From a virus, in IMG/VR virus record IMGVR_UViG_3300034355_001150, positions 25,767 to 89,766 of that record: 64,000 nt of DNA. One strand, written 5' to 3'. Below are positions 35,747 through 60,790 of this stretch, piece by piece. Each line of letters begins with the position of its first letter. Position 1 is the stretch's first letter. Below the pieces are notes generated by a model. It was not told the DNA's origin, made no database searches, and worked only from the letters and a program-made list of their open reading frames with translations. A program made the position numbers and the translations under genes.

Positions 35747-37378
<1,632 letters not shown>

Positions 37379-37684
37379 TTAGTTTTCTCCTCTAATAATT
37401 GCAACCACTTCGTCTTCGCGAAGAATATGATAATTTTTACTCTCTACTGTAACCGTTTGGCCAGCGTGTTTGCTAAACAGAACACGATCACCAACACTAA
37501 TGACCAACGGAACAATAGTACCATCTTCGGCGATACGACCAGAACCGACACCCAATACTACCGCTTGAGTGGGTTTTTCGTTTGCGGAATCTGGAATAAC
37601 CAATCCAAATTCAGTCACGGTTTCATTTTCAATAAGCTCAACTACGATTCTATCGCGAATTGGCTGAACAGGACATGTACTCAT
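37379..37684 (-). CDS. groES: Co-chaperonin GroES
   Basis: PIRDRIVV...[12 protein letters not shown]...VGSGR...[12 protein letters not shown]...REDEVVAII. Confidence 0.97.
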
Positions 37685-40325: not shown

Positions 40326-40607
40326 TTATATCAATCTTGCCACTCCTATTAGTTTTCCGTTCTCCCAATCAAATGTGAATTTAACATTATTTTCCTCATC
40401 CTTTCTTGGTGGTCTAAACCGACAAAACTCTTTCTCTAATACGATAACACCAGATACCTCAATGTTTTTTCGCTTGATTCTATATTCAACATCATTGTCC
40501 CACACGGGCGTTAAACAATCAACCCAACCATCTTCCCATTTAGCTTGAATTTCAGCGCCATTTGCCCATGCAATAATCAGATCGCGATGCTTATGTGGTT
40601 TTGACAT
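40326..40607 (-). CDS. Hypothetical phage protein
   Basis: KPHKH.DLI.AWANGAEIQ...W..C..P.W....EYRIK. Coupled to the ligase stop. Confidence 0.7.
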   Translation of the reverse strand: MSKPHKHRDLIIAWANGAEIQAKWEDGWVDCLTPVWDNDVEYRIKRKNIEVSGVIVLEKEFCRFRPPRKDEENNVKFTFDWENGKLIGVARLI

Positions 40608-41968
40608 TACACTTTTTCTCCTTCAGTAAAGCCACGGAATCGTTCAAATCTTGGGAATCTCAAGCTATAAGTACCATCTTGATTTTTTGTAATCGTATCC
40701 GCTTGAATCTCAATCACTCTACCAAGAACAATATCACGATCTTCCCAAAAACTTTCACGCTGTACATCAGTAAATCCGCTACCAACATTGACTCGTATAA
40801 TGCGACCATTATCCTCGCCTTCGCAAATCAATGCACCCAGCTTCCCTTCATTTTTGCCAGTGCCTTCCTCATAACCGATTACTGATAGATCAAATGTTTC
40901 TACTGGCTTATATTTCAACCAAGATGTGGATCGTTTGCACTTATACGGTGCATCCAAATCTTTAATCATAATGCCCTCAAATTTATCACTGATAGCTTTA
41001 TTGGCAAAATCCCACATCTGATCAACACCTTCATCTGTATCCAGATCAACAATCAGATTGTCTACCAATTGAATGCAATCACATTCAAGAATTTCTTTTG
41101 CCTTGAATAAAGTTTCGGTTCTCTTACTTTGCGCAATAGGGCATTCACCATCCTTAAAATCACTACTGGGAACAACATCAAACACATGGTAAATGGTATC
41201 ATCGGTGTTGATATCAGTCTTGCGACGAGCTTGCTTCATCAACATCTGGAATGATTGACCAATCACTTCGCCATCAATAACAAACGATGATCCAAAAATA
41301 GGCGCAAGTTCATCGTATCGCTTCTGAATTTCTTCTGCAATATGCGGAAAATTATCAAATGGTTTTCCATTGCGGCTCATTAAATTTACAGTAGCACCAG
41401 TGACGATAGCCAACACCCTCACACCGTCTAGCTTCAGCTCGATTTGCTTTTTACCAAGCATTTTTTTCTGATTATCTTTTGAATCAGATGCAAGTTGGCA
41501 AGAGAATACAGGAATTTCCCATTGAGTATTTTTCAATACTTTATTAAGTGTTTTTTCAGAAATGCCTACTCGCAAATCCTTGGTGAGAATTCTGCGGCAA
41601 CCGTTATTCCAATTATCAGAATCAAATTGCTTGCTTAGTTTGGCAATCATATCACGAGCAAGATTTCCAGTAACGCTTCTGGTTCTTAGTTCTTCGCATA
41701 ATGCCCAAAATTCTGGCCATGGATTTTCTTTATCAGTTAACGCAACCGTAGTTGGAACTTGCTTAATATTGAATACAAAAAATGGATTGTATGTCAGATA
41801 GCAATTGTATAAAAATGCATCTGCGTCTTCGGAACCAAGATTGGCAAACATCAATGCTTGCTCAAGGATTTGTTCCTTCTCATTTCTGCTATTTGTAGAC
41901 TCTAGCCTACTGATCCATTTTCCAGACACATTCAATCCATTGAATTTAGTATTATTGACTTCTAACAT
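40607..41968 (-). CDS. lig: ATP-dependent DNA ligase
   Basis: Motif I KLDGVR, VIDGEV, FDVV, EGIMIK, KRSTSWLKYK, VGSGF and LRFPRF. Confidence 0.95.
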   Translation of the reverse strand: MLEVNNTKFNGLNVSGKWISRLESTNSRNEKEQILEQALMFANLGSEDADAFLYNCYLTYNPFFVFNIKQVPTTVALTDKENPWPEFWALCEELRTRSVTGNLARDMIAKLSKQFDSDNWNNGCRRILTKDLRVGISEKTLNKVLKNTQWEIPVFSCQLASDSKDNQKKMLGKKQIELKLDGVRVLAIVTGATVNLMSRNGKPFDNFPHIAEEIQKRYDELAPIFGSSFVIDGEVIGQSFQMLMKQARRKTDINTDDTIYHVFDVVPSSDFKDGECPIAQSKRTETLFKAKEILECDCIQLVDNLIVDLDTDEGVDQMWDFANKAISDKFEGIMIKDLDAPYKCKRSTSWLKYKPVETFDLSVIGYEEGTGKNEGKLGALICEGEDNGRIIRVNVGSGFTDVQRESFWEDRDIVLGRVIEIQADTITKNQDGTYSLRFPRFERFRGFTEGEKV

Positions 41969-42753: not shown

Positions 42754-42912
42754 TTACACCTCTACCAATTCATTGGGATCAAACGCAGCCAAGTTATCTT
42801 CTTCGTCGTCTTCCCAAACAGCATTTCCCTCATCGTACTTAACGAATCTGAGTTTTGATTCAGGGTCAACGAACGTAGCTCCAAAATACAGTTTTCCGAA
42901 TTCAATAGTCAT
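42754..42912 (-). CDS. 52-aa acidic protein missing from the ORF track (MTIEFGKLYFGATFVDP...)
   Basis: GGAG RBS, directly downstream of the promoter at 42938-42965. Confidence 0.6.
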   Translation of the reverse strand: MTIEFGKLYFGATFVDPESKLRFVKYDEGNAVWEDDEEDNLAAFDPNELVEV

Positions 42913-42937
42913 TTTTAGTCTCCATTAAATTAGTGTG

Positions 42938-42965
42938 ATTATACAGTAAAATTTTAGATTGTCAA
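42938..42965 (-). promoter_or_regulatory. Early promoter TTGACA-16-TATAAT overlapping the MTase stop
   Basis: TTGACAATCTAAAATTTTACTGTATAAT. Confidence 0.8.
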
Positions 42966-43873
42966 CAACTGCTCTCAATTAGCTCAATTTCTTCTTTGGT
43001 CAGATTAAAATGATTGTACAATTGCTGATTGGACCAGCTTCTTGTCAAGTCAAGTTTAGGAAAAACATTCAAGTTTTTCGTTTCATTATATTGAGTATGG
43101 CGATATACGCGAGAAAAAAATTTATACAGATTGCTATTAAACACTGTTTTTGCGTGTTCAACACTTTCTTCTTCTTTCAAGAGCATTGTTTGGCACCATC
43201 CTACACCATAATGTCCATCATCAATGATTACTTTTGTGGGTCCATTGTAGGGAATAACCACTTTCTTTTTTGATTTTAACGGTGATTCAATTTCACTCCA
43301 TCTTACAGGAATTCCAGAATCGTTTAAGTAATCCTTGCTAGAATTAACATGATGTATGTTTGCGTGTATGGCGTTCGCCGTTTTATTATCGGTATGATAG
43401 CCTGTTCCTTTATATTGATGATTTATGCCAGCTAAGAAAAAATTACAACGTGGTTCGGACGATTCTGTTAGCTTTTTTATAATAGTCAGCCCTTTGTTTG
43501 TAATTAGCTTGGTTTTCCTTAAATCAACTACATGAACACCATCATTGCAATTTATCTCAGATTTACCTTGATATTGATTTTTTTGTACAATAGTGTAGCC
43601 AAACGTAGAGGAAACATTAAAGTAATTTTTAATTCTATCCGATATGTCAGCGTATATCAGATTGTATTCTGAAAACACTCTCTCAATGATTTTTCCATTA
43701 TCGCTCGGAGAACACCAACCAGTTGGCGTAATTAAGCAAGTATATCCATTTTCTGCTGTGATGTCAACCGATAGCGTTAAAAACTCTTTCCACAGAGATT
43801 TGTTAGTTTGTCTTCCGTTTTTGGCGAGTTGTTTGAATGGTGGATTACCTACCACTATGTCAAATTTCATCAA
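42962..43873 (-). CDS. N6-adenine DNA methyltransferase catalytic/TRD half (Eco57I-like), cassette 5
   Basis: Starts at MKFDIVVGNPPF (motif IV). No SAM-binding motif I. Confidence 0.8.
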   Translation of the reverse strand: MMKFDIVVGNPPFKQLAKNGRQTNKSLWKEFLTLSVDITAENGYTCLITPTGWCSPSDNGKIIERVFSEYNLIYADISDRIKNYFNVSSTFGYTIVQKNQYQGKSEINCNDGVHVVDLRKTKLITNKGLTIIKKLTESSEPRCNFFLAGINHQYKGTGYHTDNKTANAIHANIHHVNSSKDYLNDSGIPVRWSEIESPLKSKKKVVIPYNGPTKVIIDDGHYGVGWCQTMLLKEEESVEHAKTVFNSNLYKFFSRVYRHTQYNETKNLNVFPKLDLTRSWSNQQLYNHFNLTKEEIELIESSC

Positions 43874-43882
43874 CCAATATTC

Positions 43883-44980
43883 TCAATAGTAATTTGGCAT
43901 AGCGTTTATTACGTCGCGCTCTTCTTGTGTGAATCCATAGAAGTCTTGTATTGAATCTTCAGTCCAAATTCTATCCAATGGCGGTAGTGGTACATTTTCA
44001 AAATATCGCTTAATAAACAAATGCTGTGATACCTTGTATATCACCAAGCCATATCTAGCCACCTTTGTTTTCAAATAAGATTTTAAGCTATCTTTTTCTT
44101 CGTCTGTGTTAATGACCAAACATTTAGCGCCATCTTTCAAGACATCAATTTTACTGTTCCTGTAGAAAAAAGTAAAATAATCATCAGTATTAAAATGTCC
44201 ACATATTTGAGGTAACGCAATAAATGGTCGGTTGGGTCGATCTGAAGATATATCATTCAAACACTTTTCTTTCGTTAATTCTTTGTATCTATTTACGAGA
44301 CTCAAAACAACGTCACTTGGTTCCCAAAACCCCGTAGGCAAATCAGAAATGTCTTTTATATAATATTTATTATCTGATTCTTTGTAATGCAATTTAATGT
44401 TATCTTGGTTGTTCTTTATAGCATATGTTACGCATAGATAGCAACTGAATAGGCCCTTTCCAAATAACTCGTTGCCATCCATAAATGTTAATTGTTTAAG
44501 TCTTCCCTTTAGCTCTCTTCTGACTTCTTTTTCTATAGAAGAATTGCCTCGATATGTCCACCCCGATGGGTGAATCAAGCAAACAATATCAGCTATCTGC
44601 AAACATTTCAATAAAAAATCTAAGTGGGTATTTTTTAAATAAGGTGGATTGCCCACCACTATGTCAAATTTCATATCTGTTTCCCATGTCAAAAAGTCGG
44701 CTCTGATTACGTTCTTGAATCGGCCATGCAACATCATGCGATTAGTTGCCCATATTGCCTTATCAAGAACGTATATGCGATTATTTATGTAGTCATTGTC
44801 AAAGCCTAATTTTCGCATTCTTCTTACAATCACTTTTGACTCGGTTCCATAGCCACAGGCAACATTCAGTATCTTAATATCTGGATTTAAAAATACCTCG
44901 TCGGGTATTTGGTCAATGATTTCTGTCCACAATTCAATACTATCTGGATCACCTAAAAAGCAATTGCCGCCGTATCCCAT
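43883..44980 (-). CDS. N6-adenine DNA methyltransferase (gamma-type order), cassette 4
   Basis: Motif-I-like ILNVACGYGTE followed by FDIVVGNPPY and a unique C-terminal region. Confidence 0.85.
   Translation of the reverse strand: MGYGGNCFLGDPDSIELWTEIIDQIPDEVFLNPDIKILNVACGYGTESKVIVRRMRKLGFDNDYINNRIYVLDKAIWATNRMMLHGRFKNVIRADFLTWETDMKFDIVVGNPPYLKNTHLDFLLKCLQIADIVCLIHPSGWTYRGNSSIEKEVRRELKGRLKQLTFMDGNELFGKGLFSCYLCVTYAIKNNQDNIKLHYKESDNKYYIKDISDLPTGFWEPSDVVLSLVNRYKELTKEKCLNDISSDRPNRPFIALPQICGHFNTDDYFTFFYRNSKIDVLKDGAKCLVINTDEEKDSLKSYLKTKVARYGLVIYKVSQHLFIKRYFENVPLPPLDRIWTEDSIQDFYGFTQEERDVINAMPNYY
44640..44980. repeat. Direct repeat shared with 48240..48580 (exactly 3600 bp apart)
   Basis: 44640-44820 appears identical to 48240-48420 and the remainder is near-identical. 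Shorter copies lie at 45851-45897, 47438-47477 and ~43839-43870. Confidence 0.9.
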
Positions 44981-45048
44981 TAAAATTCCTCCATAGATTA
45001 ATTGTTGTTAATAACTGTTCTCATTTGTTTTAGGTCATGTCAAGTCTT

Positions 45049-45918
45049 TTACGAGGTTTCTTTTTTTCTAACAAGTACATCTAAGATGTATTCTTGCTCC
45101 GTGGCGGAGATATTGAACAATGAGAATAATTCTGAATCATTCATATTAATTCCGGAAATTTTTGGCATCCTTGCTAAATTTCTATAGCTCACTTGCGCTG
45201 CATTGGCAAAAGAATATACACAAAATCTACCAAGAAGTGATTTGGATAAATACCAAGAGTTAAGGTGAGCTTCCGTCTCCGAATCCATCTTTAAAAACAT
45301 ACCTCTGCCATTCTCAATTATTCCTTCGTTTGTATGATTCACTCTTGAAATAACTGACTTTTTTCCACCCTTTGGTTTTGTGTGACAAAAACGAATATAT
45401 GCAGAATCAACAAAAACATAATCTTTTGCAATCTCGTTTCGTGATAGAAACAATTTTTCTCCCGAGGAGTTAAACACTTTGTCTATTATGGATGCCCCCA
45501 CAATGTTTGTGGCCTGTATGGGTAACGCCTTTTGCATATCCCAATCAATGTGCGATTCCGAGAAGATGACTTTTGTTGTTTTTGTAACCAATCCCAAAGA
45601 CTTTGAACCAATAAAACCAGCAATGTTTGTTCCAATTCCCGGAAAACTTTCATTCAGGTTGGCAAATACTGTTGTTAATGAAAATAAATTATGTATTATT
45701 TTAGCACTTTTAGACCCCGGATCTAAAAATCTATTGGGAACAACGAATGCAATCAATCCGTCTTCTGAAAGAACTTTTCCAGACTTTTCTATAAATTTTG
45801 TATAATACGAAGAATCACCGTCTATTTTATATGGCGGATTTCCAACCACAATGTCAAATTTCATATCTGTTTCCCATGTCAAAAAGTCGGCTCTGATGAC
45901 ATTATTGAACCCACCCAA
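45049..45918 (-). CDS. 5'-truncated methyltransferase cassette 3
   Basis: NPPY and TRD region are intact. Upstream codons LDRTIWATNRIRILGGF (from ~45957) are a remnant of the N-terminal half seen in cassettes 1 and 4. Confidence 0.75.
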   Translation of the reverse strand: MGGFNNVIRADFLTWETDMKFDIVVGNPPYKIDGDSSYYTKFIEKSGKVLSEDGLIAFVVPNRFLDPGSKSAKIIHNLFSLTTVFANLNESFPGIGTNIAGFIGSKSLGLVTKTTKVIFSESHIDWDMQKALPIQATNIVGASIIDKVFNSSGEKLFLSRNEIAKDYVFVDSAYIRFCHTKPKGGKKSVISRVNHTNEGIIENGRGMFLKMDSETEAHLNSWYLSKSLLGRFCVYSFANAAQVSYRNLARMPKISGINMNDSELFSLFNISATEQEYILDVLVRKKETS

Positions 45919-45969
45919 AATACGTATCCGATTGGTAGCCCAAATGGTCCTATCTAATTAGTGTGATTA

Positions 45970-46581
45970 TTAATCTTCTAGGTTAAATAGATTTATAAAT
46001 TCCTGTGGGGTTAGATATTCTTTTGCCCTGATAACAACGTCGTTGCCATATTTGGCAAACAACGCCTTCCCGTCATATTTTTCGTATATCTGAGGCCATA
46101 GACCTTTATTATCGTTAACCGAACGAGTGGGAAAAGCGACGCGAATCTTTAATTTACTAGAAACCGTAACGTTACCTGCATTTCTCTTAATCGACTTGAG
46201 TTTGATATCCTTCAAAATTTTTGAAGCCTCTTCTTTGTCCAATCCACTGGGTGCATTGTATAGATCGCTGGGGAAATCAACCCAGCGTCCGTTCTCATGA
46301 ATCCAATAATCAACATTGATAGGATCAATTTTAAATAGCTCTGTTACATATGCCGCCTCTCTGGCATCTGCATAATATCCGCCGTGCCAAGAAGTTCTTT
46401 CTTGTGCATATAATTGTGAACGAATAGAGGTATCTGATGGATTGGCACATGCCGCAATAAATGGTTTGGATTCATCCAATGTCCAAGCAGTGGATAATGC
46501 GGCTCCGGTGTAACCCGACCTATTTGATTTTCTGGTTGACAGATGAATTTTTATGCCGGTGGAAAGAGTAATAGTGGTCAT
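45970..46581 (-). CDS. Protein with degenerate AP2-like DNA-binding domain (start MTTITL)
   Basis: SNRSGYTG....W...FIA...WHGGYYADAREAAY pattern, GAGGAG RBS, and its own early promoter. Confidence 0.55.
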   Translation of the reverse strand: MTTITLSTGIKIHLSTRKSNRSGYTGAALSTAWTLDESKPFIAACANPSDTSIRSQLYAQERTSWHGGYYADAREAAYVTELFKIDPINVDYWIHENGRWVDFPSDLYNAPSGLDKEEASKILKDIKLKSIKRNAGNVTVSSKLKIRVAFPTRSVNDNKGLWPQIYEKYDGKALFAKYGNDVVIRAKEYLTPQEFINLFNLED

Positions 46582-46635
46582 TGTTTGTCTCCTCGTTAAA
46601 ATTAAGACTTGAACGAACTTCAAATCATTGGGAGT

Positions 46636-46663
46636 ATTATACAGTAAAATTTTTACTTGTCAA
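46636..46663 (-). promoter_or_regulatory. Early promoter TTGACA-16-TATAAT overlapping the MTase stop
   Basis: TTGACAAGTAAAAATTTTACTGTATAAT, nearly identical to 42938-42965. Confidence 0.8.
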
Positions 46664-47477
46664 CCTTTTTTACTCTACTCTCTATGAAATTTATCTCATC
46701 ATCGGACAGCAAGAAATGCTTATAAACATCGTTATTGGTCCACATTCTATCAGAATCTAACTTTGGTAACAAATTATTATTTTTTACCACTGGAGTAAAT
46801 CCAGCTGTTTTAAGATGGTTGTCGGCATAAAAGCGATATAAATTACTGTTGGTATATGATAAAATATTATTGCCCTCCTTTATGTTCGTTATAGGAAGAA
46901 TTTTATTAAATTTACAAGTGGGCGAATCGGTTATGAATTGCGAGGAGTAACTTGCGCTGAAAGGATAGACTATTTTGAGGCCGACATTATTTGGCTTTAA
47001 ATCTGTGTTCGTTTTGTTTTTGCCGCTATAATAAATCTCACAATCCCCTATGTTTAAATTCTCTTTTGTTATTTGCGGGTTCTCGTATATCAAAGATAAA
47101 AATTCCGCGCTATCTAACATTTTAGACACAATAGAGTCAATCATTGGATCTCTTAGTATTGGAAGCATAACCTTTTTGTGCTTTGAACTTCTCGTTACTA
47201 CCCAATGACATGTATTCACTCCAACTGAAAACCATTGTTTTTCTTTGTGTACAGAAGCATGAGTTAAAGTTAGTTGATTATTCAATCTATCCTTAAACCA
47301 CTTTCCCATACCGACCGTGTAATCAAAAATAGATGCAGGTGTTACGAATGCAACAAACCCGATGTCGGTAACTAGGGTGAGTGTTTTTTTCGCGAATTTA
47401 TGCCATAATTTATTATTTTTAGCTTTATTGTTGTTGTCCTGATAAGGTGGATTGCCCACCACTATGTCAAATTTCAT
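46653..47477 (-). CDS. N6-adenine methyltransferase catalytic/TRD half, cassette 2
   Basis: Starts at MKFDIVVGNPPYQ with an ATGA overlap. No motif I. Confidence 0.8.
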   Translation of the reverse strand: MKFDIVVGNPPYQDNNNKAKNNKLWHKFAKKTLTLVTDIGFVAFVTPASIFDYTVGMGKWFKDRLNNQLTLTHASVHKEKQWFSVGVNTCHWVVTRSSKHKKVMLPILRDPMIDSIVSKMLDSAEFLSLIYENPQITKENLNIGDCEIYYSGKNKTNTDLKPNNVGLKIVYPFSASYSSQFITDSPTCKFNKILPITNIKEGNNILSYTNSNLYRFYADNHLKTAGFTPVVKNNNLLPKLDSDRMWTNNDVYKHFLLSDDEINFIESRVKKVDK

Positions 47478-48580
47478 TGACCAATTTTCTCAATTAGCTC
47501 AATTTCTTTGTTAGTCAGATTAAAATGATTATACAATTCTACGTCGGACCACGCCATGTTGGTGTCAACCATCGGTAATGATTGCAAAATTCCGGTACTC
47601 GATTGCCCTGCCTCTCCGCCAAGTATTTTAAACACGTAGCAAAACAACTTGCTATTGAATATTGTTTTATAATTTGCAAGATTTTTTGTATCAGCTATCA
47701 CCATAGTTTGTGCAGAATGATTAGTGTCCGACGAACGACCGATAAAAAGTTTATCGTATTTTTTGAATCGTCCTCCGTTTATCTTAACCACCAAATCAGA
47801 TTCCTTCGACTTATCGCATTCTGTAAATTTCCATTTCTTGGAGGAATATGTTTTGTTCAATATACTTAGATTATCTGGAGTAACATCAAACGGAATAGGA
47901 CAGGAAGCATCTACATCGCAGTAAGTAGAATCATTATTATTTAAGATAAGACATTGTCCAACATAATTTTTGGACATAACAAATGCACTTATGCGAATAC
48001 CAACATTGAAATGATGCGAAACATCCGGGTATATTCCGATGAATTTAAAATTATTTTTATAAATAAATGTTATCTTGTTTGTTTCCTTGCCAAAATTTGA
48101 TATAGAAAAAATTGAAGTGGGAACTATCATTGCTATAGTTGTATTTTCGCTTGACAATTCAACGGCTTTTGTCAAAAAAGCCCACCAAAAGCCTCCTTGT
48201 TTATTGTTCTTGCATTTTATAGCTGCGGTCGATGCCTGATAAGGTGGATTGCCCACCACTATGTCAAATTTCATATCTGTTTCCCATGTCAAAAAGTCGG
48301 CTCTGATTACGTTCTTGAATCGGCCATGCAACATCATGCGATTAGTTGCCCATATTGCCTTATCAAGAACGTATATGCGATTATTTATGTAGTCATTGTC
48401 AAAGCCTAATTTTCGCATTCGGCGAACGATCACTTTTGACTCGGTTCCATAGCCACAGGCAACATTCAGTATCTTAATATCTGGATTTAGAAATACCTCA
48501 TCGGGTATTTTGTCAATGATTTCTGTCCACAATTCCTCGCTATCGGGATCACCCAAGAAGCAATTACCACCATATCCCAT
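47474..48580 (-). CDS. N6-adenine DNA methyltransferase (gamma-type order), cassette 1
   Basis: First ~113 aa almost identical to cassette 4, then a different sequence after NPPY. Confidence 0.85.
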   Translation of the reverse strand: MGYGGNCFLGDPDSEELWTEIIDKIPDEVFLNPDIKILNVACGYGTESKVIVRRMRKLGFDNDYINNRIYVLDKAIWATNRMMLHGRFKNVIRADFLTWETDMKFDIVVGNPPYQASTAAIKCKNNKQGGFWWAFLTKAVELSSENTTIAMIVPTSIFSISNFGKETNKITFIYKNNFKFIGIYPDVSHHFNVGIRISAFVMSKNYVGQCLILNNNDSTYCDVDASCPIPFDVTPDNLSILNKTYSSKKWKFTECDKSKESDLVVKINGGRFKKYDKLFIGRSSDTNHSAQTMVIADTKNLANYKTIFNSKLFCYVFKILGGEAGQSSTGILQSLPMVDTNMAWSDVELYNHFNLTNKEIELIEKIGQ

Positions 48581-49935
48581 TACACATCTCCAAAACAGAA
48601 ATCATTGATTAAATTGTTGTATTTTTTAGTATTCTGGACAACCACGTCTAATATCGGCTCATTCAGAATTCCCTTATCTAAGATCATCAAAGCTATCTCA
48701 ATATCAATTCCGACAAAATCATAAAATTCTTCGGATGATTGCGCAGAGTAAATAATGTTCTCCAAACACTCTTTGTACGTTTCTCCGCTTGGATATAGAT
48801 AATGAACATTTCTCGCAGACCGATTTATCGTCTTGATGGCCTCATTTATTATCGTCTCAATATCTTTATCACTTTTGCGATTTTTCGGCCTTTTGCCATC
48901 TGTTTCAGTTACATAATTTTTAACAGCATCAATTGCATTTTTGCCTTGATGTCCTGGTCCAGCAATACGATTCGCGTTTTCAAGATGTTCAACGATGTCA
49001 CGTGCCAAATCAATATTTACAGTAACATCGGCCACCCGAAGTAGATTTTCATTATCATTCAGAATGGTGAACATTTCAGATTCAGTTACCTCAACCGCCG
49101 TTCCATACTTCACTCTAAAACAATCTATGCTTGATAAAACAAAGCGAGTCGCGGTTGGAAAATCCATCCCTTCGCTTTTATGAACCTGCATGATCTCTTC
49201 TACTAATAGCTTTTCTATATTTTCAGAACGATTTGGGTCAAAGCTAAGATCAACAATGTGTCCATACTCTTTTGATTCACCAGAGAATGTGTTACCCGGT
49301 GTCAAACAACGACTTACTTTTTGAATAGTAGTATCTACCGATCCTCTATCATAAGCAATAACTGATGCTTGAATTTCAGATATACTGTATGATCGTGAAC
49401 CCATCTGATTTGATATTATAATCAAACCATCCTTGCCAGCGATTTTTGCCTCGTTTATTTCCCGAATCGTTTCTGATTCTGCTTCTTTGTTGCTGGTAAA
49501 ATCACCGTTTAATATTTTGATATGATAATTAGGGATAGCCCTGATAGCGATATCTTTAATCTGCCGCATTTCCTTGTTGTTGGCACTCACCAACAACATA
49601 AAGCAATCAACAGATTCGCCGGTCAAATTGCTCAAGTTCAATTCTTGTCGTAGAGGTTCTTCTCCGATAAAACTCTTGAATAATTTTGTGATAAACGATT
49701 TATTTCCATTGGGTTTTCCCCATATTTTTGCCCAAGAAGGCTGAACTTCTGGCTCAAGCGATTCTATATCATGCTTGAGTGTATCTACTTCCAACATGAA
49801 GAATTTTCGTTTTATAATACTTTCTTCGGATTGCTCTAATTGACTATAAGCGGTATAAATAACCCCATCAACTTTTGGCGCACCTTTGGCCAATCTCTGG
49901 ATGTTGGTTCCAGAGGCATATATTTTTATTAGCAT
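48580..49935 (-). CDS. SF2 (restriction-type) helicase C-terminal part
   Basis: Begins with motif-III-like YASGT, has MGSRSYSI and motif-VI-like IQKVSRCLTP. TAATG-coupled to MTase cassette 1. Confidence 0.7.
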   Translation of the reverse strand: MLIKIYASGTNIQRLAKGAPKVDGVIYTAYSQLEQSEESIIKRKFFMLEVDTLKHDIESLEPEVQPSWAKIWGKPNGNKSFITKLFKSFIGEEPLRQELNLSNLTGESVDCFMLLVSANNKEMRQIKDIAIRAIPNYHIKILNGDFTSNKEAESETIREINEAKIAGKDGLIIISNQMGSRSYSISEIQASVIAYDRGSVDTTIQKVSRCLTPGNTFSGESKEYGHIVDLSFDPNRSENIEKLLVEEIMQVHKSEGMDFPTATRFVLSSIDCFRVKYGTAVEVTESEMFTILNDNENLLRVADVTVNIDLARDIVEHLENANRIAGPGHQGKNAIDAVKNYVTETDGKRPKNRKSDKDIETIINEAIKTINRSARNVHYLYPSGETYKECLENIIYSAQSSEEFYDFVGIDIEIALMILDKGILNEPILDVVVQNTKKYNNLINDFCFGDV

Positions 49936-49959
49936 AGTTCATTTTGGTGTTTATTGATT

Positions 49960-50784
49960 TCATGAAAACAAAAAATCTACTTTTTTAATTTGATTGTCGG
50001 TATGAGTGCCGAAATCTCCCTCGTCGGCGAAAACAAATATATCGTCATTTTTCAAATCTGATATCCATTGATGTTTTTCGCACCATTCATCATAATCTCC
50101 GTGAAGTGAGATAGGAACAACTACTCGTTGACCATTAGATAAAGCATTTTCAACTTTGAATGAGGCATCGTCGTCATTGCAATCAATCAATGCAATGTCC
50201 AAAAAATCATCATAGTCCGATAATGCATTTATGAATGATGAATGCACACTGAGCCAATACGCTGGCAACAGCATAATTCTATTGTTGTATCTTTCGCAAA
50301 CAGCATTAAATAGCATCAGTGACCATATTGTTTTGCCAAATCTCGGGCATAAATTTGCGGCAATCGTTGGCGAATGATCGGTTTTATCTATTATTTCTAA
50401 TGCGTCATTTAATGCTTTTTGTTGTAAGTCACGAAGTACAACCTTGTTTCTTACTCGTTTTCCCTCCATGGATTCAACCAAGTCATCAATGTAACGATGA
50501 GCGTCATCAATAGAGGTACCGGGAATTTTAAACCATTCGGTTCCTGCACCATCTTTGTGGTGCAATCCTTTCCTGGTCAATACTTTATGAACTTCGTAAT
50601 CACGCTTGATATTCTGAAGATTATTCCATGAGCCTACTCGGATTTTTGCTTCATACTCTGATGCACCTCCCTGTTCTGCTATTCTAACGTCAACATCACG
50701 AATACTATCGCCCACTTTGGCCAAAATAAACCCATCATACTTGCATAATGCCGAAGGATAAGTGTACGCATATAAATTGATCAT
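49960..50784 (-). CDS. GIY-YIG/T5orf172-like nuclease fused to SF2 helicase N-terminal part (start MINLYAY)
   Basis: LYAY...KVGDS.RDV..RI.EQ...D..VH..L...GTEWF nuclease domain, LRDLQ Q-motif, Walker A CPRFGKT and Walker B FADEGD. Confidence 0.75.
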   Translation of the reverse strand: MINLYAYTYPSALCKYDGFILAKVGDSIRDVDVRIAEQGGASEYEAKIRVGSWNNLQNIKRDYEVHKVLTRKGLHHKDGAGTEWFKIPGTSIDDAHRYIDDLVESMEGKRVRNKVVLRDLQQKALNDALEIIDKTDHSPTIAANLCPRFGKTIWSLMLFNAVCERYNNRIMLLPAYWLSVHSSFINALSDYDDFLDIALIDCNDDDASFKVENALSNGQRVVVPISLHGDYDEWCEKHQWISDLKNDDIFVFADEGDFGTHTDNQIKKVDFLFS

Positions 50785-50789
50785 GCTGC

Positions 50790-51266
50790 TCACTCTCCCC
50801 AATTATCAAATAGCGTGTGTTTATGTAATTCATCATCGTTAAAGTTTGTTCCATTGAACTCATATCCATAGGTTAAACCATCATGGCATACTATGTTCTT
50901 CTCAACAATGTGAGAATATTCTGATTTACCACATAATAAACGCTCTCTGCACAGAGTAACATTATCTTGCATAATATCAACGCCAAAAACTGTACTCAGG
51001 GCTTGTTTAAACCCATGACCGTTCTCTAGCTTACGAATAAGAACTTCGCTTAAAAATTGCCCATCGCCGCAACTTGGATCAAGAAATGTTTTAGTTGGAT
51101 CCGTAAATGAATCTTTTGGTAATAGGTCCAATATCTCTTGCACCAATGGCGTGGGTGTGAAGCACTCCCCTGTGCTTTTTATGCGGGACATTTCTCGAAC
51201 AGTCCCGGACATGAATTCTCTATCGCGCATATGCGATATAGCTGATTGTAATTCTTCTTTCGTCAT
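50790..51266 (-). CDS. Stand-alone SAM-binding half of an adenine methyltransferase (158 aa)
   Basis: Motif X GECFTP, motif I FLDPSCGDGQFL, motif II FGVDI and motif III NIVCHDGL. Ends before any NPPY. Confidence 0.85.
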   Translation of the reverse strand: MTKEELQSAISHMRDREFMSGTVREMSRIKSTGECFTPTPLVQEILDLLPKDSFTDPTKTFLDPSCGDGQFLSEVLIRKLENGHGFKQALSTVFGVDIMQDNVTLCRERLLCGKSEYSHIVEKNIVCHDGLTYGYEFNGTNFNDDELHKHTLFDNWGE

Positions 51267-51331
51267 AATTCTCCTATTATAATATGGTTAAGATTACCTC
51301 AATTTGCTAATTACTTAAAGTCATTTTGCGA

Positions 51332-51358
51332 TAAAGGGATCATGACATGATCCCTTTA
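51332..51358. terminator. Hairpin, probable terminator upstream of the methyltransferase locus
   Basis: TAAAGGGATCATG-A-CATGATCCCTTTA palindrome. Confidence 0.6.
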
Positions 51359-51365
51359 GTTTTTG

Positions 51366-51734
51366 CTATGTTGAATCAATTTTTGGCTTTCTTGGCAATT
51401 TAAGTCCATGCTCAACCATGTGCATAAACGATTCAACGTCCGTTACATGATAATCTATATCGTCAATTGTCACATTGGGTCTGTCGCTCGTTACATCAAA
51501 CTCTGGCATTTCATGCAAAAACCAATCAATCCAATCTCTCAGTTCTTTTCCTAGAAATAAATCCAATACAAGTTGAGTTTGAAAATAGTATGTATTGGTA
51601 TATAAATTTTCTGATATAACTTCCTCTAATGAGGGATCCACAGAACGCAAGTCGCGTCTATACTTGTCCAAGTTCTCATTGTCTGATTTTAACCGAGTTG
51701 CGATTTCTCTAAAATCTTCAAGATATACATTCAT
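51366..51734 (-). CDS. Hypothetical protein
   Basis: Packed ORF. No family recognised. Confidence 0.6.
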   Translation of the reverse strand: MNVYLEDFREIATRLKSDNENLDKYRRDLRSVDPSLEEVISENLYTNTYYFQTQLVLDLFLGKELRDWIDWFLHEMPEFDVTSDRPNVTIDDIDYHVTDVESFMHMVEHGLKLPRKPKIDST

Positions 51735-55883: not shown

Positions 55884-56696
55884 TTATTCTCCGTTAAAAA
55901 TTATTTTTGTCAATAAGTCTATGCCATCTATGGCATTCATTTGCATAGATATATCTTGTTTGCGTGATATATCCGGTTCATATAGGTTTATCCTAATCAA
56001 TTTGCTGGTTCTTTCTGCACCAAACCATCTAATAGATGGGATAGTTTTACCAGCCCCTATCTCAATTCCGACAATGTTTTTCTTATCAGATTCCCATTCG
56101 GTATATGATCTTTGTTGTTCGTCCACCCGATTGAAACAAAAAGCAGGATCATTGAACATCATTACTTTTGGTCTCAAATAGCTACCGCAATTTGGGCAGG
56201 TTGGTATATCTTTTTCGCTGGTCAGTACATCAGTAAAATTCGGCATAGGCCAATCTTCGCGTGTGCATTGATCAACACATTGAATATATCGCAAATTACC
56301 GTGAATTTCAAGCAATTTGTTTGAATCATATCCAGCCTTTAAAAAGTGACCATCAACATTGGATGTTACCGAGAATATATCCTTTCCTAATTCTTTAAGC
56401 CTCAGTAATTGTACATATCCCTTATGAGGAGTTAATGACATTCCGGTTATCAATCTGGTAATATAAAAGTTCCATGCTTCCAAAGGATGAATGGCAAATG
56501 CGTCGGCTGTAGCAAATTTCATGAAATTACTTTGCTCACTTGTCCATATTCCATCTTTTCCCCTAAAGTCCGGTATTCCAGAATCAACGCTCATACCCGC
56601 CCCAGATAGAATAACAATCCCATCTGCTTCATCAATCATCTTTTTGATTTGATTATCCAGCACAGCTTTCGCATTCTCCTTTACTAGCTTGAACAC
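55884..56696 (-). CDS. Sir2/sirtuin-family NAD-dependent deacylase
   Basis: GAGMSVDSGIPDFRG, TSNVDG, EIHG, Zn-binding Cys pairs, LRPKVMMF, IGAG and RIN motifs. The start may be ~56639. Confidence 0.92.
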   Translation of the reverse strand: MFKLVKENAKAVLDNQIKKMIDEADGIVILSGAGMSVDSGIPDFRGKDGIWTSEQSNFMKFATADAFAIHPLEAWNFYITRLITGMSLTPHKGYVQLLRLKELGKDIFSVTSNVDGHFLKAGYDSNKLLEIHGNLRYIQCVDQCTREDWPMPNFTDVLTSEKDIPTCPNCGSYLRPKVMMFNDPAFCFNRVDEQQRSYTEWESDKKNIVGIEIGAGKTIPSIRWFGAERTSKLIRINLYEPDISRKQDISMQMNAIDGIDLLTKIIFNGE

Positions 56697-57648
56697 CCGA
56701 TTCTGATCTAATATAATACAATGATTTAATCAACGGATCATTAAATGCCATCTGATGAACTTCTGAGATATATTCTTCTGATTCATCTGACGAGAAAAAT
56801 AGATTGATGGATTGCGCTTGGTCTATAAATTGCTGTCTTACTGAAGCTAATCTTATAATGACCTTTTGATCAATTTCAAATGCCGTTTTAAATACTTTTT
56901 TCTCTTCTTCGTTTAACCATTCAACATCTTGCACCGAGCCATTATGATTGATTACTTCGTTGATGTGCTTATCATCATAAATTCCTTTTTCCTTCAACAG
57001 TTCCAAAAATACCGGATTGATTCTGTTCATTTCTCCAGCAGCAGAACCTTGTACGTAGACATTTTTATAAACGGGTTCAATTCCCTGTGATACGCCTCCC
57101 ATAATTCCGGCTGTTGATAGCGTTGGTGCAACAGCCAATAGATGAGAATTTCTACGATTATATCCTCTGCACCATTCTGGTTCGCCAAATGCTTCTGCCA
57201 TCCATCGTGTTGCCTTTTCTGATTCTTCTTTAATTTTTTTGAAGATTTCTGCATTCTTAAAGTGAGCTTCTATTGATTCAAACGGAATCATATTTAATTG
57301 CAAATAGGTATGAAATCCCATTACGCCAAGTCCTAATGCTCTTGACTTTTCCGTGAACCTGACTGCTTTTTCTAAACCTTTTATTTTTTTACCAATAGAA
57401 ATAAACTCAGATGCGACACAGTCTAAGAATACAGAAGAAACAAAAATAGTATCGGTATCTTTCCATTCATCATACTTAGCTAAATTCAACGAAGATAATA
57501 CGCATGTATAGGTATGTTCATCATCGGAGAACAACGTGATCTCTGTGCAATTATGAACCAAAATGTCGTTTCCGAAGAAGTTATTATTGTCTTCTACTGT
57601 TATATCATAAACATCTTCTAGATAGTCAACCTCTTCAATTAATAGCAT
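56653..57648 (-). CDS. nrdA: Ribonucleotide reductase class Ia alpha, C-terminal fragment preceded by split-intein C-half
   Basis: VYDITVEDNNNFFGNDILVHN|CTEI, then CVLSSLN, RALGLG, AVAPT, DQAQS, SLYYIR and a C-terminal CESC. Confidence 0.95.
   Translation of the reverse strand: MLLIEEVDYLEDVYDITVEDNNNFFGNDILVHNCTEITLFSDDEHTYTCVLSSLNLAKYDEWKDTDTIFVSSVFLDCVASEFISIGKKIKGLEKAVRFTEKSRALGLGVMGFHTYLQLNMIPFESIEAHFKNAEIFKKIKEESEKATRWMAEAFGEPEWCRGYNRRNSHLLAVAPTLSTAGIMGGVSQGIEPVYKNVYVQGSAAGEMNRINPVFLELLKEKGIYDDKHINEVINHNGSVQDVEWLNEEEKKVFKTAFEIDQKVIIRLASVRQQFIDQAQSINLFFSSDESEEYISEVHQMAFNDPLIKSLYYIRSESGVQASKGECESCAG
57550..57648 (-). other. Split intein C-terminal half (33 aa)
   Basis: Block F VYDITV and block G HN, followed by +1 Cys. 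Confidence 0.9.
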
Positions 57649-58612
57649 CTAATACCTCTTTAACATTAATTTTGTTTCTCATTTTGTTATACCTATTGTA
57701 TTCTAAATTTAACTCTTTACAAACCGGCGAAATCAAATTGTTTTTAACATCACCATTAAACCTAAACCCACTTTTAGCACCGCCGCCGAGATTTGGAAAT
57801 TTTCTAAATTTGTGTTTTTCATCCCAAATCAACTTAATCAATTTTAATCCTGGCAATTCATTAAATTGGTATTTTTCGGCAATCACAGACGCAACCTTTA
57901 CGTAAAAATCATAGATTTCATCATCGGTTATTCCGCTGTATTTTGGGTTATTTGTTCCGGTTGTCTGATCATCTTTATTTGAAGCAGATACCCAATCTTC
58001 AATATTGTCCAAATCGTTCTTATTGCAATATCTTCCTTCTCCGGTTTTTTTATTATAAAATTTGTGTTTATTCTTTGAATGATGAACCCATTCACCCGAA
58101 ACGACTTTTGGGTGATTTTTTTCAACTGATCCAACTATTTCTCCGGTTAATACATCTTTTACTGGAAAAGTTCCTTTTCTTGATATTGATATTCTGTGTT
58201 TTCCTTCTTTTGTTTGCCACCCGTTAGTTTTACGAAAACTCGAAGAATTTTGCCTCATCCATGCATAAGAATTTCGTATTTTTCTATTTAAACAGGTTTT
58301 AATATTTTTCAATTTCTTTTTGCTGTTAAACCCGTTTATAACAAACTTAATAGCAATAAAATCACATCGTTCACCATAAGCTTTATATCTTATTAAATGC
58401 GCAAACAAATGTTCTTCTGGCAAAAGCGTAACTATATTATCTATGTTATTTGAACCCCCAACACTTTTTGGAATTATATGATGCCCCTCGACATATAATT
58501 CTAAATTATTTACTATTCGTAAATCTTTGGGGTTTCGTTTCCTTAACCGAGCAAAAGGGGTTGTTCTTTGACAATAATTGATAAATGTTTCATATAATTT
58601 AATATAATTCAT
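57635..58612 (-). CDS. Free-standing HNH homing endonuclease between the nrdA halves
   Basis: EGHHIIPKSVGGSN..DNIVTL.PEEH..AH motif. Confidence 0.88.
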   Translation of the reverse strand: MNYIKLYETFINYCQRTTPFARLRKRNPKDLRIVNNLELYVEGHHIIPKSVGGSNNIDNIVTLLPEEHLFAHLIRYKAYGERCDFIAIKFVINGFNSKKKLKNIKTCLNRKIRNSYAWMRQNSSSFRKTNGWQTKEGKHRISISRKGTFPVKDVLTGEIVGSVEKNHPKVVSGEWVHHSKNKHKFYNKKTGEGRYCNKNDLDNIEDWVSASNKDDQTTGTNNPKYSGITDDEIYDFYVKVASVIAEKYQFNELPGLKLIKLIWDEKHKFRKFPNLGGGAKSGFRFNGDVKNNLISPVCKELNLEYNRYNKMRNKINVKEVLDAIN

Positions 58613-58617
58613 GTTTT

Positions 58618-58651
58618 AATTCCTCTTCGTGTATTTATACGAAGAGGAATT
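58618..58651 (-). promoter_or_regulatory. RBS-sequestering hairpin containing late promoter TATAAATA
   Basis: AATTCCTCTTCGT-ATAAATAC-ACGAAGAGGAATT immediately upstream of the HNH ATG. Confidence 0.8.
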
Positions 58652-58664
58652 TCACTACATAAAA

Positions 58665-59789
58665 CTATAAAATTTTGAGTTCATCAGAAGTTGTCAAATT
58701 GCCAGCCTCAACATAACCTCTATTTTTAGTATAGATGAGATGACAAGGAGTACAAACTAAACTTTTGCCAGAAGTTTCATCTGTAATTTTAATCAATTTC
58801 GCATCTTTTTTCGTTAAAGCAAAATCAACAATTTTTTTCCATTCAATTTTGTTTGATTCTATATTAAACGACTTCGTTAATAACGGAATGCCATTATCTA
58901 AAAATAATCCAACAAGTTTGATGGGAAGTACAAATTCTTCCGACGATTCGTCCTCAATTTTTACTTGAACCAAAGTATTTCCGGTTACACAGAGATTACT
59001 CGCCTTTACTTTTAATCCATTATCTTTGTAACATTTGGGTGTCAGCTTGTTTACCTTGTCAACAAAAAAGAAATATCCCTTTCCGGTTACCATCTTGGTT
59101 TTCATAACCTTTTGATACCTTGAAATAGCTTTTTTATCGCCTGAGTTCAATCTCCTAATGAATTTATCAGTTATAACCCACCCGATATTACAATCATCTG
59201 GGCTTGAATTGAGGAAGTTAATGATCTCCCAAAAATCTTCATGATCAATTTCAATATATCCAGCCCATGCTCCACGCCTCGTGTTGCCCTGAGATATATC
59301 TCTGGACAATTGAACAAAGTCTTTCAATACAGGAAGAACACCAGATGCCTTTCCGCCAGATGAGATTTCTGTTCCTCTATGTCTGATTGCACCAAGATAC
59401 GAGCTTGTACCAAAACCGTTCTTGGATAACATTGCTATTTCTTTTTGAGTATCATAAAAGTCATACACACAATCATTGACAAAATTACCAGAGCAGCTTA
59501 CATTACATCCTCTATCGGTTCCCATGTTGGCGAGAATCGGAGTAGCACAAGATAGCCAACCATTCCAAATAACTGTATAAAATTTATGTTCCCAATACTC
59601 TGGATCATCAGTCCATTTAGCCGCACATTTGCTAATTCTACGAGCTACTGACTTAAAGTCCTTTTCTGTTTTAGTTGCGTATTTTGAAGAGAATAATTGC
59701 CACCCAGCGGTCGTAAACCAATCAGGTAAAACGCCTTCCTCTTGGAGACGTTTGCGTTCTTCGGATAGATCTTCGTAAATTGTCTTCAT
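58665..59789 (-). CDS. nrdA: Ribonucleotide reductase class Ia alpha, N-terminal fragment ending in split-intein N-half (start MKTIYED)
   Basis: ATPILAN, VSCS, SQGNTRRGA and SNL|CVTGNT. ATGA overlap with nrdB. Confidence 0.95.
   Translation of the reverse strand: MKTIYEDLSEERKRLQEEGVLPDWFTTAGWQLFSSKYATKTEKDFKSVARRISKCAAKWTDDPEYWEHKFYTVIWNGWLSCATPILANMGTDRGCNVSCSGNFVNDCVYDFYDTQKEIAMLSKNGFGTSSYLGAIRHRGTEISSGGKASGVLPVLKDFVQLSRDISQGNTRRGAWAGYIEIDHEDFWEIINFLNSSPDDCNIGWVITDKFIRRLNSGDKKAISRYQKVMKTKMVTGKGYFFFVDKVNKLTPKCYKDNGLKVKASNLCVTGNTLVQVKIEDESSEEFVLPIKLVGLFLDNGIPLLTKSFNIESNKIEWKKIVDFALTKKDAKLIKITDETSGKSLVCTPCHLIYTKNRGYVEAGNLTTSDELKIL
58668..58991 (-). other. Split intein N-terminal half (108 aa)
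   Basis: Block A CVTGNTLV and block B CTPCHLIYT..RGYVEAGNL...DEL, then stop. Confidence 0.9.
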
Positions 59790-60790
59790 GCCGCTTCCTC
59801 TACCGACCAATTGAATCCCTTCTCGTTCCAATCTCGCTTATATGAATTGCCAATTTTATAGAAAAAATCATGCAATTGAGGTGCGTTGATGTTTTTATAG
59901 AACCAAGTTTTGATTGGATTGTATTGAGGATTATAGTGTTTTTCAAATCCAAGTTGTTCTAAACAAAGATCAAGTCGATGCTGAATAAACGATTTTAGCT
60001 GATGGTCGGTAATTCCCTTGATATTGCCCTTCTCAAAAATCATATCTATAATTCTATCCTCGTGTTCTTTGATGTGTTCTACTGTTTCTAATAGGTCTGT
60101 GTTTAATTTCGTTATTTGTTCTTGTGATAATTCGCTTTCTGCCAACAGAGTTCTGAACAACCATGCTCCGGCAATAGAATGAAGATTCTCATCTCTGACG
60201 GAGAAGTTAATTCCGGCAGTAACGTTCACCAACTTGTTTTTTCCCTCTGATTGAAAATGCTTCAAGAAAGCAAATGATGAGTACAAGATAGCGCCTTCAA
60301 TCATTGAAAAAACAGCTAATGATTTCAGAATATCAATGATATTGTCAGAAGGTTTGGCGATTACCTTATTGATCCAATTTATTCTATTGAACAACACCGA
60401 ATCTTCAACATAAGAATTGTAGAATTCGTCTGTGTTCAATCCAAGAACTTCGTTTAGTTTGTTATAGAATGGTGCATGAACATTTAGCTCAAAAAAACTA
60501 AAACAGTTGCTCATTCGTTCAATATCTGGCCTGGGGAAAAGCCTTTTTATTTTTCCAGACCAATATTCTTTGCCTACTACCAATTCATATAACGTGAATA
60601 GCTTTAAGGTAGTAATTACTCCATGATACTCAGCATCAGTGAAATTGGTCTTCATATCATGAAGGTCCTTTTCCACCTCTATTTCATTGGGATGCCAAAA
60701 AATATCCATTTGTTGGTTTGCAAACTCAACCGCTTCGGGATAATCTATCGTGTATGTTGTTTTTTCTTGTAATAGTCTTGGTTTTTCCAT
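59786..60790 (-). CDS. nrdB: Ribonucleotide reductase class Ia beta subunit
   Basis: FWHPNEI, FELNVH..FY, EGAILYSSF and RDENLH diiron motifs. Confidence 0.93.
   Translation of the reverse strand: MEKPRLLQEKTTYTIDYPEAVEFANQQMDIFWHPNEIEVEKDLHDMKTNFTDAEYHGVITTLKLFTLYELVVGKEYWSGKIKRLFPRPDIERMSNCFSFFELNVHAPFYNKLNEVLGLNTDEFYNSYVEDSVLFNRINWINKVIAKPSDNIIDILKSLAVFSMIEGAILYSSFAFLKHFQSEGKNKLVNVTAGINFSVRDENLHSIAGAWLFRTLLAESELSQEQITKLNTDLLETVEHIKEHEDRIIDMIFEKGNIKGITDHQLKSFIQHRLDLCLEQLGFEKHYNPQYNPIKTWFYKNINAPQLHDFFYKIGNSYKRDWNEKGFNWSVEEAA

Follow-up and report, generated by a model that had tools for sequence, protein, structure and literature searches.

A free-standing AdoMet-binding half-protein of phages as a candidate trans-acting subunit for methyltransferase cassettes that start at motif IV

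We analysed a window of 64,000 nucleotides, which represents the last 64 kb of the 89,766-bp IMG/VR viral contig IMGVR_UViG_3300034355_001150 and contains a gene for a protein of 158 amino acids (aa), followed by an array of DNA methyltransferase modules (referred to below as cassettes 1 to 5). The contig is estimated by CheckV to be 27% complete and is therefore probably derived from a large phage. The 158-aa protein resembles the S-adenosylmethionine (AdoMet, SAM)-binding half of an adenine methyltransferase, and we think it probable, if with considerable reservation, that it is a trans-acting AdoMet-binding subunit which completes those cassettes of this phage that lack an N-terminal half (N-half). 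The SAM half, comprising strands β1-β3 with motifs X, I, II and III, would dock its motif-I strand onto the motif-IV strand of modules that begin with NPPY, which would complete in trans both the seven-stranded fold and the cofactor site. Cassettes without their own SAM half (2, 5, probably 3, and a seventh outside the window) would become active adenine methylases of different specificities, and cassettes 1, 4 and 6, which have their own N-half, would work alone. Given such a SAM half acting in trans, a cassette could drop its N-half through recombination at a shared 36-nt junction at motif IV and stay usable, which would explain a swappable and variable array. From the anatomy of the locus, the conservation of the protein, the gene neighbourhoods, the fused relatives and the fold and complex models described here, we infer binding, activity, sharing of the subunit and the evolutionary logic. 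That one shared subunit provides several specificities at once is plausible here, but unproven.

An earlier note on this DNA had described the first gene of the locus as a stand-alone SAM-binding half which contains motifs X, I, II and III and ends before motif IV, and this description holds. The translation reads GECFTPTP as motif X, FLDPSCGDGQF as motif I, FGVD as motif II and IVCHDGL as motif III, and the C-terminus lies 29 residues past motif III, with motif IV absent. The protein contains no target-recognition domain (TRD); these domains reside in the cassettes. The Pfam family N6_Mtase aligns with residues 29-121 via positions 22-108 of its 311 profile positions (E 6.3e-07), covering only the front of the domain. 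With a profile of the SAM-half family, matches were obtained to the N-terminus of M.BseCI (chain residues 10-103, E 7.1e-05) and to the equivalent region of HsdM, CamA and BsaXI. The open reading frame (ORF) is the first in order of the locus, whose genes all lie on the minus strand. Its stop codon is separated by 5 nt from the next ATG, and the subsequent ORF junctions consist of a 24-nt gap and overlaps of 1 nt and 4 nt, indicating that the SAM-half gene heads a tightly packed gene row.

A protein search returned 5041 homologues of the SAM half with sizes of 86-277 aa (E<=1e-3). The best 120 of these are 148-197 aa long (median 155 aa) and share 63-98% identity with the query; CGDGQF is kept in 119 of them and a motif of the type [NDS]PP[YFW] occurs in none. 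In an alignment of 21 members, motifs X, I, II and III show little or no variation; FLDPSCGDGQF, GVD and CHD are invariant throughout, and the invariant cofactor-binding residues are D63, C66-F71, D97 and D129. Longer relatives are rare, amounting to 16 at E<=1e-3 among 298 candidates. In PHROGs, the free-standing form makes up two families, phrog_21201 and phrog_4376. We found no model for it in NCBIfam and PADLOC, where the matches represent the fronts of full-length methyltransferase models; those in NCBIfam fall below the curated cut-offs, and the PADLOC models have no such cut-offs. The homologues are annotated as 'type I M subunit' or 'hypothetical', and a megablast search of positions 42900-51400 against a phage collection gave no match, and thus no close relative in culture. 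Judged by these sequences, the 158-aa gene is the SAM-binding half in a very large and conserved phage family of half-proteins, and the many same-sized homologues agree with the earlier view of a stand-alone protein.

Because the ORF stops where motif IV would start and is followed after 5 nt by another gene, we also considered that it is the functionless leftover front of a methyltransferase gene broken by the insertion of the nuclease-helicase genes. This is highly improbable in view of the thousands of homologues of the same size with invariant cofactor-binding residues, the strong ribosome-binding site, the C-terminal tail conserved past the domain, and the occurrence of this free-standing gene in all 80 related loci described below. 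A pseudogene or fragment reading of the SAM half was rejected on the conservation data.

The cassettes all contain an NPPY-type motif IV and carry the NPPY region of the Eco57I type. Cassettes 1 and 4 are complete, with N-half, NPPY motif and TRD. As the earlier note had stated, cassettes 2 and 5 begin at motif IV (MKFDIVVGNPPY/F starts), and the same effectively applies to cassette 3, of whose N-half an 18-aa remnant is left. The place where the N-half of cassette 3 would be is occupied by a 217-aa ORF. The half cassettes represent intact ORFs of 274-303 aa, and cassette 2 shares 43-55% identity over 97-99% of its length with four relatives of the same TRD type; the half cassettes look maintained. 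Two further cassettes are encoded outside the window at positions 176-952 and 949-1791 of the contig (minus strand), about 67 kb away, which brings the total of the contig to seven. One of them has an N-half 95% identical to that of cassette 1 (280 aa in total) and is followed with a 4-nt overlap by the other, which begins with a 21-aa N-half remnant like cassette 3; the two make a third 'full plus half' pair.

Relatives in other phages indicate how such modules and a SAM half belong together. Protein p65301 of Aeromonas phage 65 (386 aa) starts with FDYVIMNPPY, continues with a TRD and ends with a SAM-half domain 34% identical to the 158-aa protein. The same order of NPPY, TRD and SAM half was found in five of eleven fetched longer homologues (P0125, P0131, P0133, P0134 and P0136), and the 158-aa protein aligns to positions 270-382 of the 383 positions of PHROG 11371. 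In Synechococcus phage S-CAM7, an ORF of 317 aa (MKFD...NFPF) overlaps a SAM-half ORF of 136 aa; the alignment of the longer ORF with cassette 2 runs from MKFD as far as the C-terminal LTxEE helix. An NPPY-starting ORF also adjoins the SAM half in loci L018, L027, L029, L085, L099, L128, L188 and L190, and the SAM half precedes an NPPY-starting ORF in L191. The presence of NPPY-first modules fused or adjacent to this domain without any other N-half indicates that it can act as the sole SAM half. The single-chain order IV-TRD-I is present in these relatives and not in the window, where the halves are separate genes with the SAM half upstream. Two metagenomic proteins of 697 aa (P0129 and P0130) have a SAM-half domain in the N-terminal third and a methyltransferase region of the PF01555 type (SPPY) at the C-terminal end.

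A complex of cassette 2 (45-row alignment) with the 158-aa protein (21-row alignment) was modelled. The complex scored 0.83 (runs 0.83, 0.84 and 0.83), and the best of three controls 0.00; the mark used for this score is reached by 58 of 80 solved complexes and by 2 of 110 mismatched pairs. The runs agreed in at least 92% of the contacts, and the partner had predicted local distance difference test (pLDDT) values of at least 83. The residue pairs of lowest error connect residues 3-7 of cassette 2 (FDIVV, the strand before NPPY) with residues 59-64 of the 158-aa protein (KTFLDP, the motif-I strand), a contact which corresponds to the β1/β4 switch point of the methyltransferase fold as presented in PMC7544214. 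The interface comprises residues 33-75, 94 and 130-137 of the 158-aa protein. For the 158-aa protein, the seven-stranded fold is complete only in the two-chain model, which may pass by likeness to solved enzymes.

For cassettes 1 and 4, the earlier note had pointed out atypical motifs in the N-halves, namely GNCFLGDP and NVACGYGTE. The sequences are indeed unusual, yet the AlphaFold2 model of cassette 1 predicts a Rossmann-half fold with confidence: based on 31 aligned relatives, the mean pLDDT is 80 and the predicted TM-score 0.81, with block means of 88-98 for residues 11-110. The N-half strands 37-40, 69-73 and 90-93 lie beside the motif-IV strand 105-110, and the model superposes on CamA, M.TaqI and M.BseCI (Foldseek). 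The N-halves of cassettes 1 and 4 (102 aa) are 96% identical to each other over 300 nt, and both cassettes look self-sufficient. The 158-aa protein and the N-half of cassette 1 share 26% identity over 105 residues (BLAST, E 4.5e-05); they are homologous, but old paralogues. Among 62 aligned N-halves, the motif-II column is acidic in 54 and the motif-I loop is wholly missing in 10. The N-halves of full-length enzymes are therefore mostly not decayed; some partners may rely on the small protein, which most would not require.

At motif IV, all seven cassettes share a junction of 36 nt. Counted from the ATG, its first 30 nt show 87-100% identity in each of the 21 cassette pairs, and cassettes 1, 2 and 4 do not differ here at all. 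Past the junction, the next 30 nt are 27-57% identical in 20 of the 21 pairs, and the values farther on are mostly 20-40%. Third codon positions are conserved at the junction only, which points to recombination or gene conversion there. In addition, a 64-nt repeat is common to the 3' ends of cassettes 1, 2 and 5, and together with the TTGACA-N16-TATAAT sites (Table 1) it indicates that the cassette pairs 1+2 and 4+5, which lie about 3.6 kb apart, are copies of one two-gene unit.

Near-identical DNA is present in lake-water metagenomes, with three runs of three studies, besides the possible source sample, containing at least 0.96 of the sampled words. The junctions are also where contigs from four metagenomes of lakes or fresh water break off and continue with other sequence. 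In X7, joints connect 44992 to 48601 (3608 nt skipped) and 45018 to 47488 (2469 nt skipped) and would remove cassette groups; they were called at a likeness threshold of 90% with sides of 24 and 56 letters, and some may derive from other phages. In the X8 contig, the sequence ahead of a cassette 5 homologue codes for the end of an N-half (loose end at 43870). The order with the SAM half first is kept in those contigs of X5 and X8 that span the region from the cassette 1 junction through the SAM-half gene; stretches lacking coverage in these two runs were left out of the evidence. The breaks point to a cassette content that differs among lake metagenomes, and the half-cassette state may partly be a by-product of recombination at the common junction.

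To place the SAM half in its genomic context, we collected 80 IMG/VR loci with the SAM-half alignment, called their ORFs and compared them with the proteins of the window. In 46 loci, the SAM half adjoins an upstream ORF for a full-length methyltransferase (NPPY near residue 105-140), and in 17 an ORF of 1140-1236 aa in which helicase and methyltransferase are fused; the adjoining ORF is NPPY-starting in three and methyltransferase-like without NPPY in two. In the remaining loci, a methyltransferase is encoded elsewhere (three) or was not found (six), or the upstream DNA is missing (three). The recurrent operon consists of a T5orf172-like gene, a superfamily 2 (SF2) helicase in one or two ORFs, the methyltransferase and then the SAM half. 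A DNA-pattern scan for the MKFD...GNPPY junction gave at least 128 matches in at least 117 loci classed, the figures being rough due to redundant contigs, uneven flanks and contig ends. Among the matches listed, 96 are extended at the N-terminus by 60 codons or more, 17 are NPPY-starting (four of them cut by a contig end), 13 are cut at the 5' end and two are intermediate. The SAM half is encoded in the locus of 89 of the 96 extended genes, but of only 6 of the 17 NPPY-starting ones, to which a profile search adds two weak hits. Even so, the SAM half shows as the regular companion of complete enzymes.

These neighbourhoods weigh against the reading of the SAM half as a trans-acting subunit of the half cassettes. 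A methyltransferase with its own N-half precedes it in 63 of the 80 loci, and the SAM-half-first order of the window, with the nuclease-helicase genes downstream, recurs in none of them. With complete enzymes as its usual neighbours, the SAM half is not specifically a partner of half cassettes, and its main role may be other than rescuing them. Further points add to this. The fold model of cassette 1 is that of a complete enzyme, for which complementation would be unnecessary, and the ribosome-binding sites of cassettes 2 and 5 are weak (-2.7 kcal/mol). The N-half end in X8 means that close relatives differ in the half state, which could have arisen recently by recombination. Finally, halves of a well-known fold can pass in a complex model by likeness to solved single-chain methyltransferases, and the controls of our model were unrelated proteins, not other SAM halves. 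The suggestion of the earlier note that a shared SAM subunit pairs in trans with the half cassettes therefore gains from the fused and split relatives and the cassette 2 model, but loses by the usual neighbour being an enzyme with its own N-half.

The same data may be explained by the SAM half being mainly an accessory subunit of a Type ISP-like nuclease-helicase-methyltransferase machine, with a role other than supplying a missing half. The NPPY-starting cassettes would then be silent or decaying products of recombination between the junction repeats, or a reservoir of TRDs activated only by recombination behind an N-half. We regard this as unlikely, but as deserving serious attention. It accounts for the order of T5orf172-like gene, helicase, N-half-bearing methyltransferase and SAM half in the 63 loci, 17 of them with a single helicase-methyltransferase ORF, for the company of full-length genes among the matches listed, and for the weak ribosome-binding sites of cassettes 2 and 5. 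However, the half cassettes are intact ORFs, and the start of cassette 2 overlaps the stop of cassette 1; NPPY-first modules occur fused or adjacent to a SAM-half domain without any other N-half; and a half Rossmann domain with an exposed β1 edge has no obvious mode of binding to a complete enzyme. The junction common to all seven cassettes, directly after which identity drops in nearly all pairs, would suit this reading, as would the breaks, the group-dropping joints and the cassette 5 homologue behind an N-half end in the metagenomes. On the other hand, direct repeats are expected to lead to deletions and not to reversible switching, and the joints at the 90% threshold, one side of which measures 24 letters, may come from other phages.

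A second alternative, which we consider rather doubtful, is that the partners of the SAM half are short isoforms. These would be produced from all cassettes via an internal start at a conserved Met before motif IV, and each full-length gene would yield two products: a long one that is self-contained and a short one, of NPPY and TRD, that needs the SAM half. This would explain why the SAM half is kept beside complete enzymes. A Met is found in this column in 57 of 62 N-half alignments, from loci chosen via the SAM half and not via the Met. For 81 non-redundant full-length genes among the matches listed, Shine-Dalgarno (SD)-like pairing of the 18 nt upstream of this codon averages -5.2 kcal/mol, with 68% of the values at or below -4, compared to -1.8 kcal/mol and 17% for 649 other in-frame ATGs of the same genes (Mann-Whitney p 3e-23). 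Synonymous-codon shuffles are weaker at -3.8 (Wilcoxon p 2e-6), and the value at this ATG is -4.2 kcal/mol for cassettes 1, 3 and 4. However, the likeness to SD sequences comes mostly from the amino acids encoded before the Met (W, G, D, E), with 12% of the genes in the strongest tenth of their synonymous variants versus 10% expected, and the 81 genes came from a pattern that requires the ATG. The benefit of two forms is not clear either. Because the signal is mostly carried by the amino acids, we treat internal initiation as a lead, not as a finding.

The C-terminal end of the SAM half offers a further feature. A motif of a hydrophobic residue, Phe and an acidic residue or Ser occurs within the last 10 residues of 99 of the best 120 homologues. 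It sits behind a variable linker and persists behind long inserted linkers (P0063 and P0106); it survives a 27-residue Lys/Pro-rich insertion, and the fused permuted relatives end with it as well. The complex model does not place this tail among its confident interface residues, and a scan of the ORFs of the contig for similar C-terminal tails recovered the 158-aa protein itself and one internal look-alike only. The tail has the look of a peptide by which a third partner could be docked. The tails of the T4 and RB69 polymerases are one source of the idea of a tether to a clamp. A search of the contig for the T4 clamp family PF02916 gave no match, but neither did the control genomes, and the contig represents an estimated 27% of the genome, so the result does not bear on the presence of a clamp. 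A more far-reaching possibility, which we hold to be improbable, is a diversity system in which the conserved SAM half licenses a recombining NPPY-TRD library, with short forms from the internal Met as clients, and its tail tethers the assembled enzymes to, for example, the sliding clamp. In such a system, phages would exchange cassettes, both internally and with one another, at the 36-nt junction, the cassettes being active with or without an N-half, and methylation would be coupled to replication.

We return to the reading of a trans-acting subunit and compare it with known systems. The SAM half and the cassettes resemble the gamma-class N6-adenine methyltransferases (M.TaqI, CamA and M.BseCI; Eco57I PF07669 and N6_Mtase PF02384) in sequence and, for cassette 1, in fold. 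Gamma-class enzymes contain motifs X-I-II-III-IV and the TRD in one chain, whereas the phage locus encodes the front half by a gene of its own and has several modules without one. The order of the beta class (IV-TRD-I) is matched by the fused relatives p65301, P0125, P0131, P0133, P0134 and P0136, and the break at our locus coincides with the β1/β4 switch point, where permutation is expected according to the circular-permutation model of methyltransferase evolution (Jeltsch 1999, as cited in PMC7544214). The beta family PF01555 differs in that the relatives described here are Eco57I/TaqI-type modules by sequence, and that the parts in the window are unfused with the SAM half first. All stages are represented among related phages: a full gamma enzyme accompanied by an additional half, two halves encoded separately, and a permuted fusion. 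A circularly permuted M.EcoKI-like adenine methylase of jumbo phages is reported by Iyer et al. 2021 (PMC7824862).

The earlier note had pointed out that two-polypeptide methyltransferases such as the C5 enzyme M.AquI exist; M.AquI and M.EcoHK31I are natural two-polypeptide DNA methyltransferases (PMC3404938). They resemble our case in having two genes for one methyltransferase fold, but act as C5-cytosine methyltransferases, are split near motifs VIII-X, in or after the variable region, and have one partner each. In the phage locus, the split lies between motifs III and IV of an NPPY amino-methyltransferase, and a single small subunit faces several candidate partners. Type I enzymes (HsdM/HsdS) also combine a constant, cofactor-related part with variable DNA-reading parts and recombine at conserved flanks. 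However, HsdM contains the full catalytic fold and only the TRDs are separate, whereas here the fold itself is cut and NPPY travels with the TRD. We found no description of this split SAM-half family in the open-access literature searched.

The domain order of the locus resembles that of the Type ISP enzymes as given in the abstracts PMC4666363 and PMC3553950: a nuclease-like domain, an SF2 helicase-like ATPase, a gamma adenine methyltransferase and a TRD, with helicase and methyltransferase in one ORF in the 17 of 80 loci mentioned above. According to these abstracts, Type ISP enzymes are single chains with an Mrr nuclease, an SF2 ATPase, a coupler, a methyltransferase and a TRD, whereas the phage-borne locus has T5orf172/GIY-YIG-like domains (weak hits) and separate ORFs; an extra SAM-half subunit does not form part of Type ISP as described there. 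No match to an Mrr nuclease was found at the locus, where the hits to MUG113/T5orf172 are weak, and a PDB sequence search with the helicase profile found no match to solved Type ISP chains; its sole match was XPD (E 0.0099). Of the ATP-driven translocation and DNA cleavage of Type ISP enzymes, the only trace in the sequence is the helicase motifs GKT and DEGD/DEAD. The locus is not assigned to Type ISP.

The coordinates of all features are listed in Table 1. Two ORFs encode the T5orf172-like/helicase protein in the window, as they do in the closest relatives (274 + 446-454 aa), and other relatives have a single ORF of about 720-780 aa. The second ORF (451 aa) gave no family match of its own in Pfam, PHROGs, NCBIfam and PADLOC and lacks an SD-like sequence (+0.4 kcal/mol). 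Of 13 fused relatives, three matched ResIII, two MUG113, two T5orf172, one Helicase_C and one SNF2. The promoter scan listed no sigma-70-like site directly upstream of the SAM-half gene, and the promoter-like sites across the region were at chance level (35 vs. 35.8 in shuffles). For the hairpin upstream of the gene, the terminator scan found a T-run on the plus strand only, giving no indication of a terminator on the minus strand. Elsewhere in the window, candidates recognised by eye include ORFs of 542 and 101 aa resembling GroEL/GroES (35747-37684, minus strand), a DNA-ligase-like ORF (40607-41968) and pieces of a ribonucleotide reductase around an HNH-like ORF (56653-59831).

Table 1. Features of the locus, with positions in the window and strand
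Feature	Position	Strand	Remarks
Stand-alone SAM-binding half, 158 aa	50790..51266	-	N-terminal basic stretch, motifs X/I/II/III, variable linker, C-terminal LFD tail
C-terminal 20 residues of the 158-aa protein (conserved tail)	50790-50850	-	99/120 homologues
AGGAG ribosome-binding site of the SAM half	51271..51275	-	5 nt before ATG; anti-SD duplex -7.3 kcal/mol
12-bp perfect palindromic hairpin	51332..51358	.	between upstream 122-aa ORF (no family) and SAM-half gene
T5orf172/MUG113-like domain with helicase motifs I-II (PRFGKT, DEGD), 280 aa	49960..50784	-	likely ATG 50784; MUG113 E 0.019, below cut-off; SD -8.9 kcal/mol
Second half of SF2 helicase-like ATPase, 451 aa	48580..49935	-	matches second part of ~720-780-aa fused helicases
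Cassette 1, complete gamma-order methyltransferase (N-half, NPPY, TRD), 368 aa	47474..48580	-	Pfam Eco57I E 2.1e-13
Cassette 2, 274 aa, starts MKFDIVVGNPPY, no SAM half	46653..47477	-	ATG overlaps cassette 1 stop (ATGA)
217-aa ORF between cassettes 2 and 3	45970-46623	-	no Pfam/PHROGs match
Cassette 3, NPPY and TRD after 18-aa N-half remnant	45049..45918	-	MKFD ATG at 45864
Cassette 4, complete methyltransferase, 365 aa	43883..44980	-	own N-half
Cassette 5, 303 aa, starts (M)MKFDIVVGNPPF, no SAM half	42962..43873	-	translation and family search
36-nt junction repeat (ATG AAA TTT GAC ... CCACC TTAT) at motif IV	48239..48274	-	cassette 1 copy
Other junction copies	47442-47477, 45829-45864, 44639-44674, 43835-43870	-	two more outside the window
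Met103 of cassettes 1 and 4	48274, 44674	-	candidate internal start
Perfect TTGACA-N16-TATAAT site	46636..46663	-	end of cassette 2; 12/12 consensus matches, leads into 217-aa ORF
Second perfect TTGACA-N16-TATAAT copy	42938-42965	-	end of cassette 5; 12/12, consensus match only

If the cofactor site is indeed completed in trans, phage adenine methylases would often consist of two subunits and be missed by annotation, as NPPY-first genes look truncated, and methylome predictions would change for thousands of phages. Related phages would then display the stages of methyltransferase circular permutation side by side. A constant cofactor subunit with exchangeable catalytic and DNA-reading modules could serve as a scaffold for methylases of new specificity. 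With its seven cassettes, the phage itself may be broadly protected against the restriction systems of its hosts, with a cassette content that differs between lake populations.

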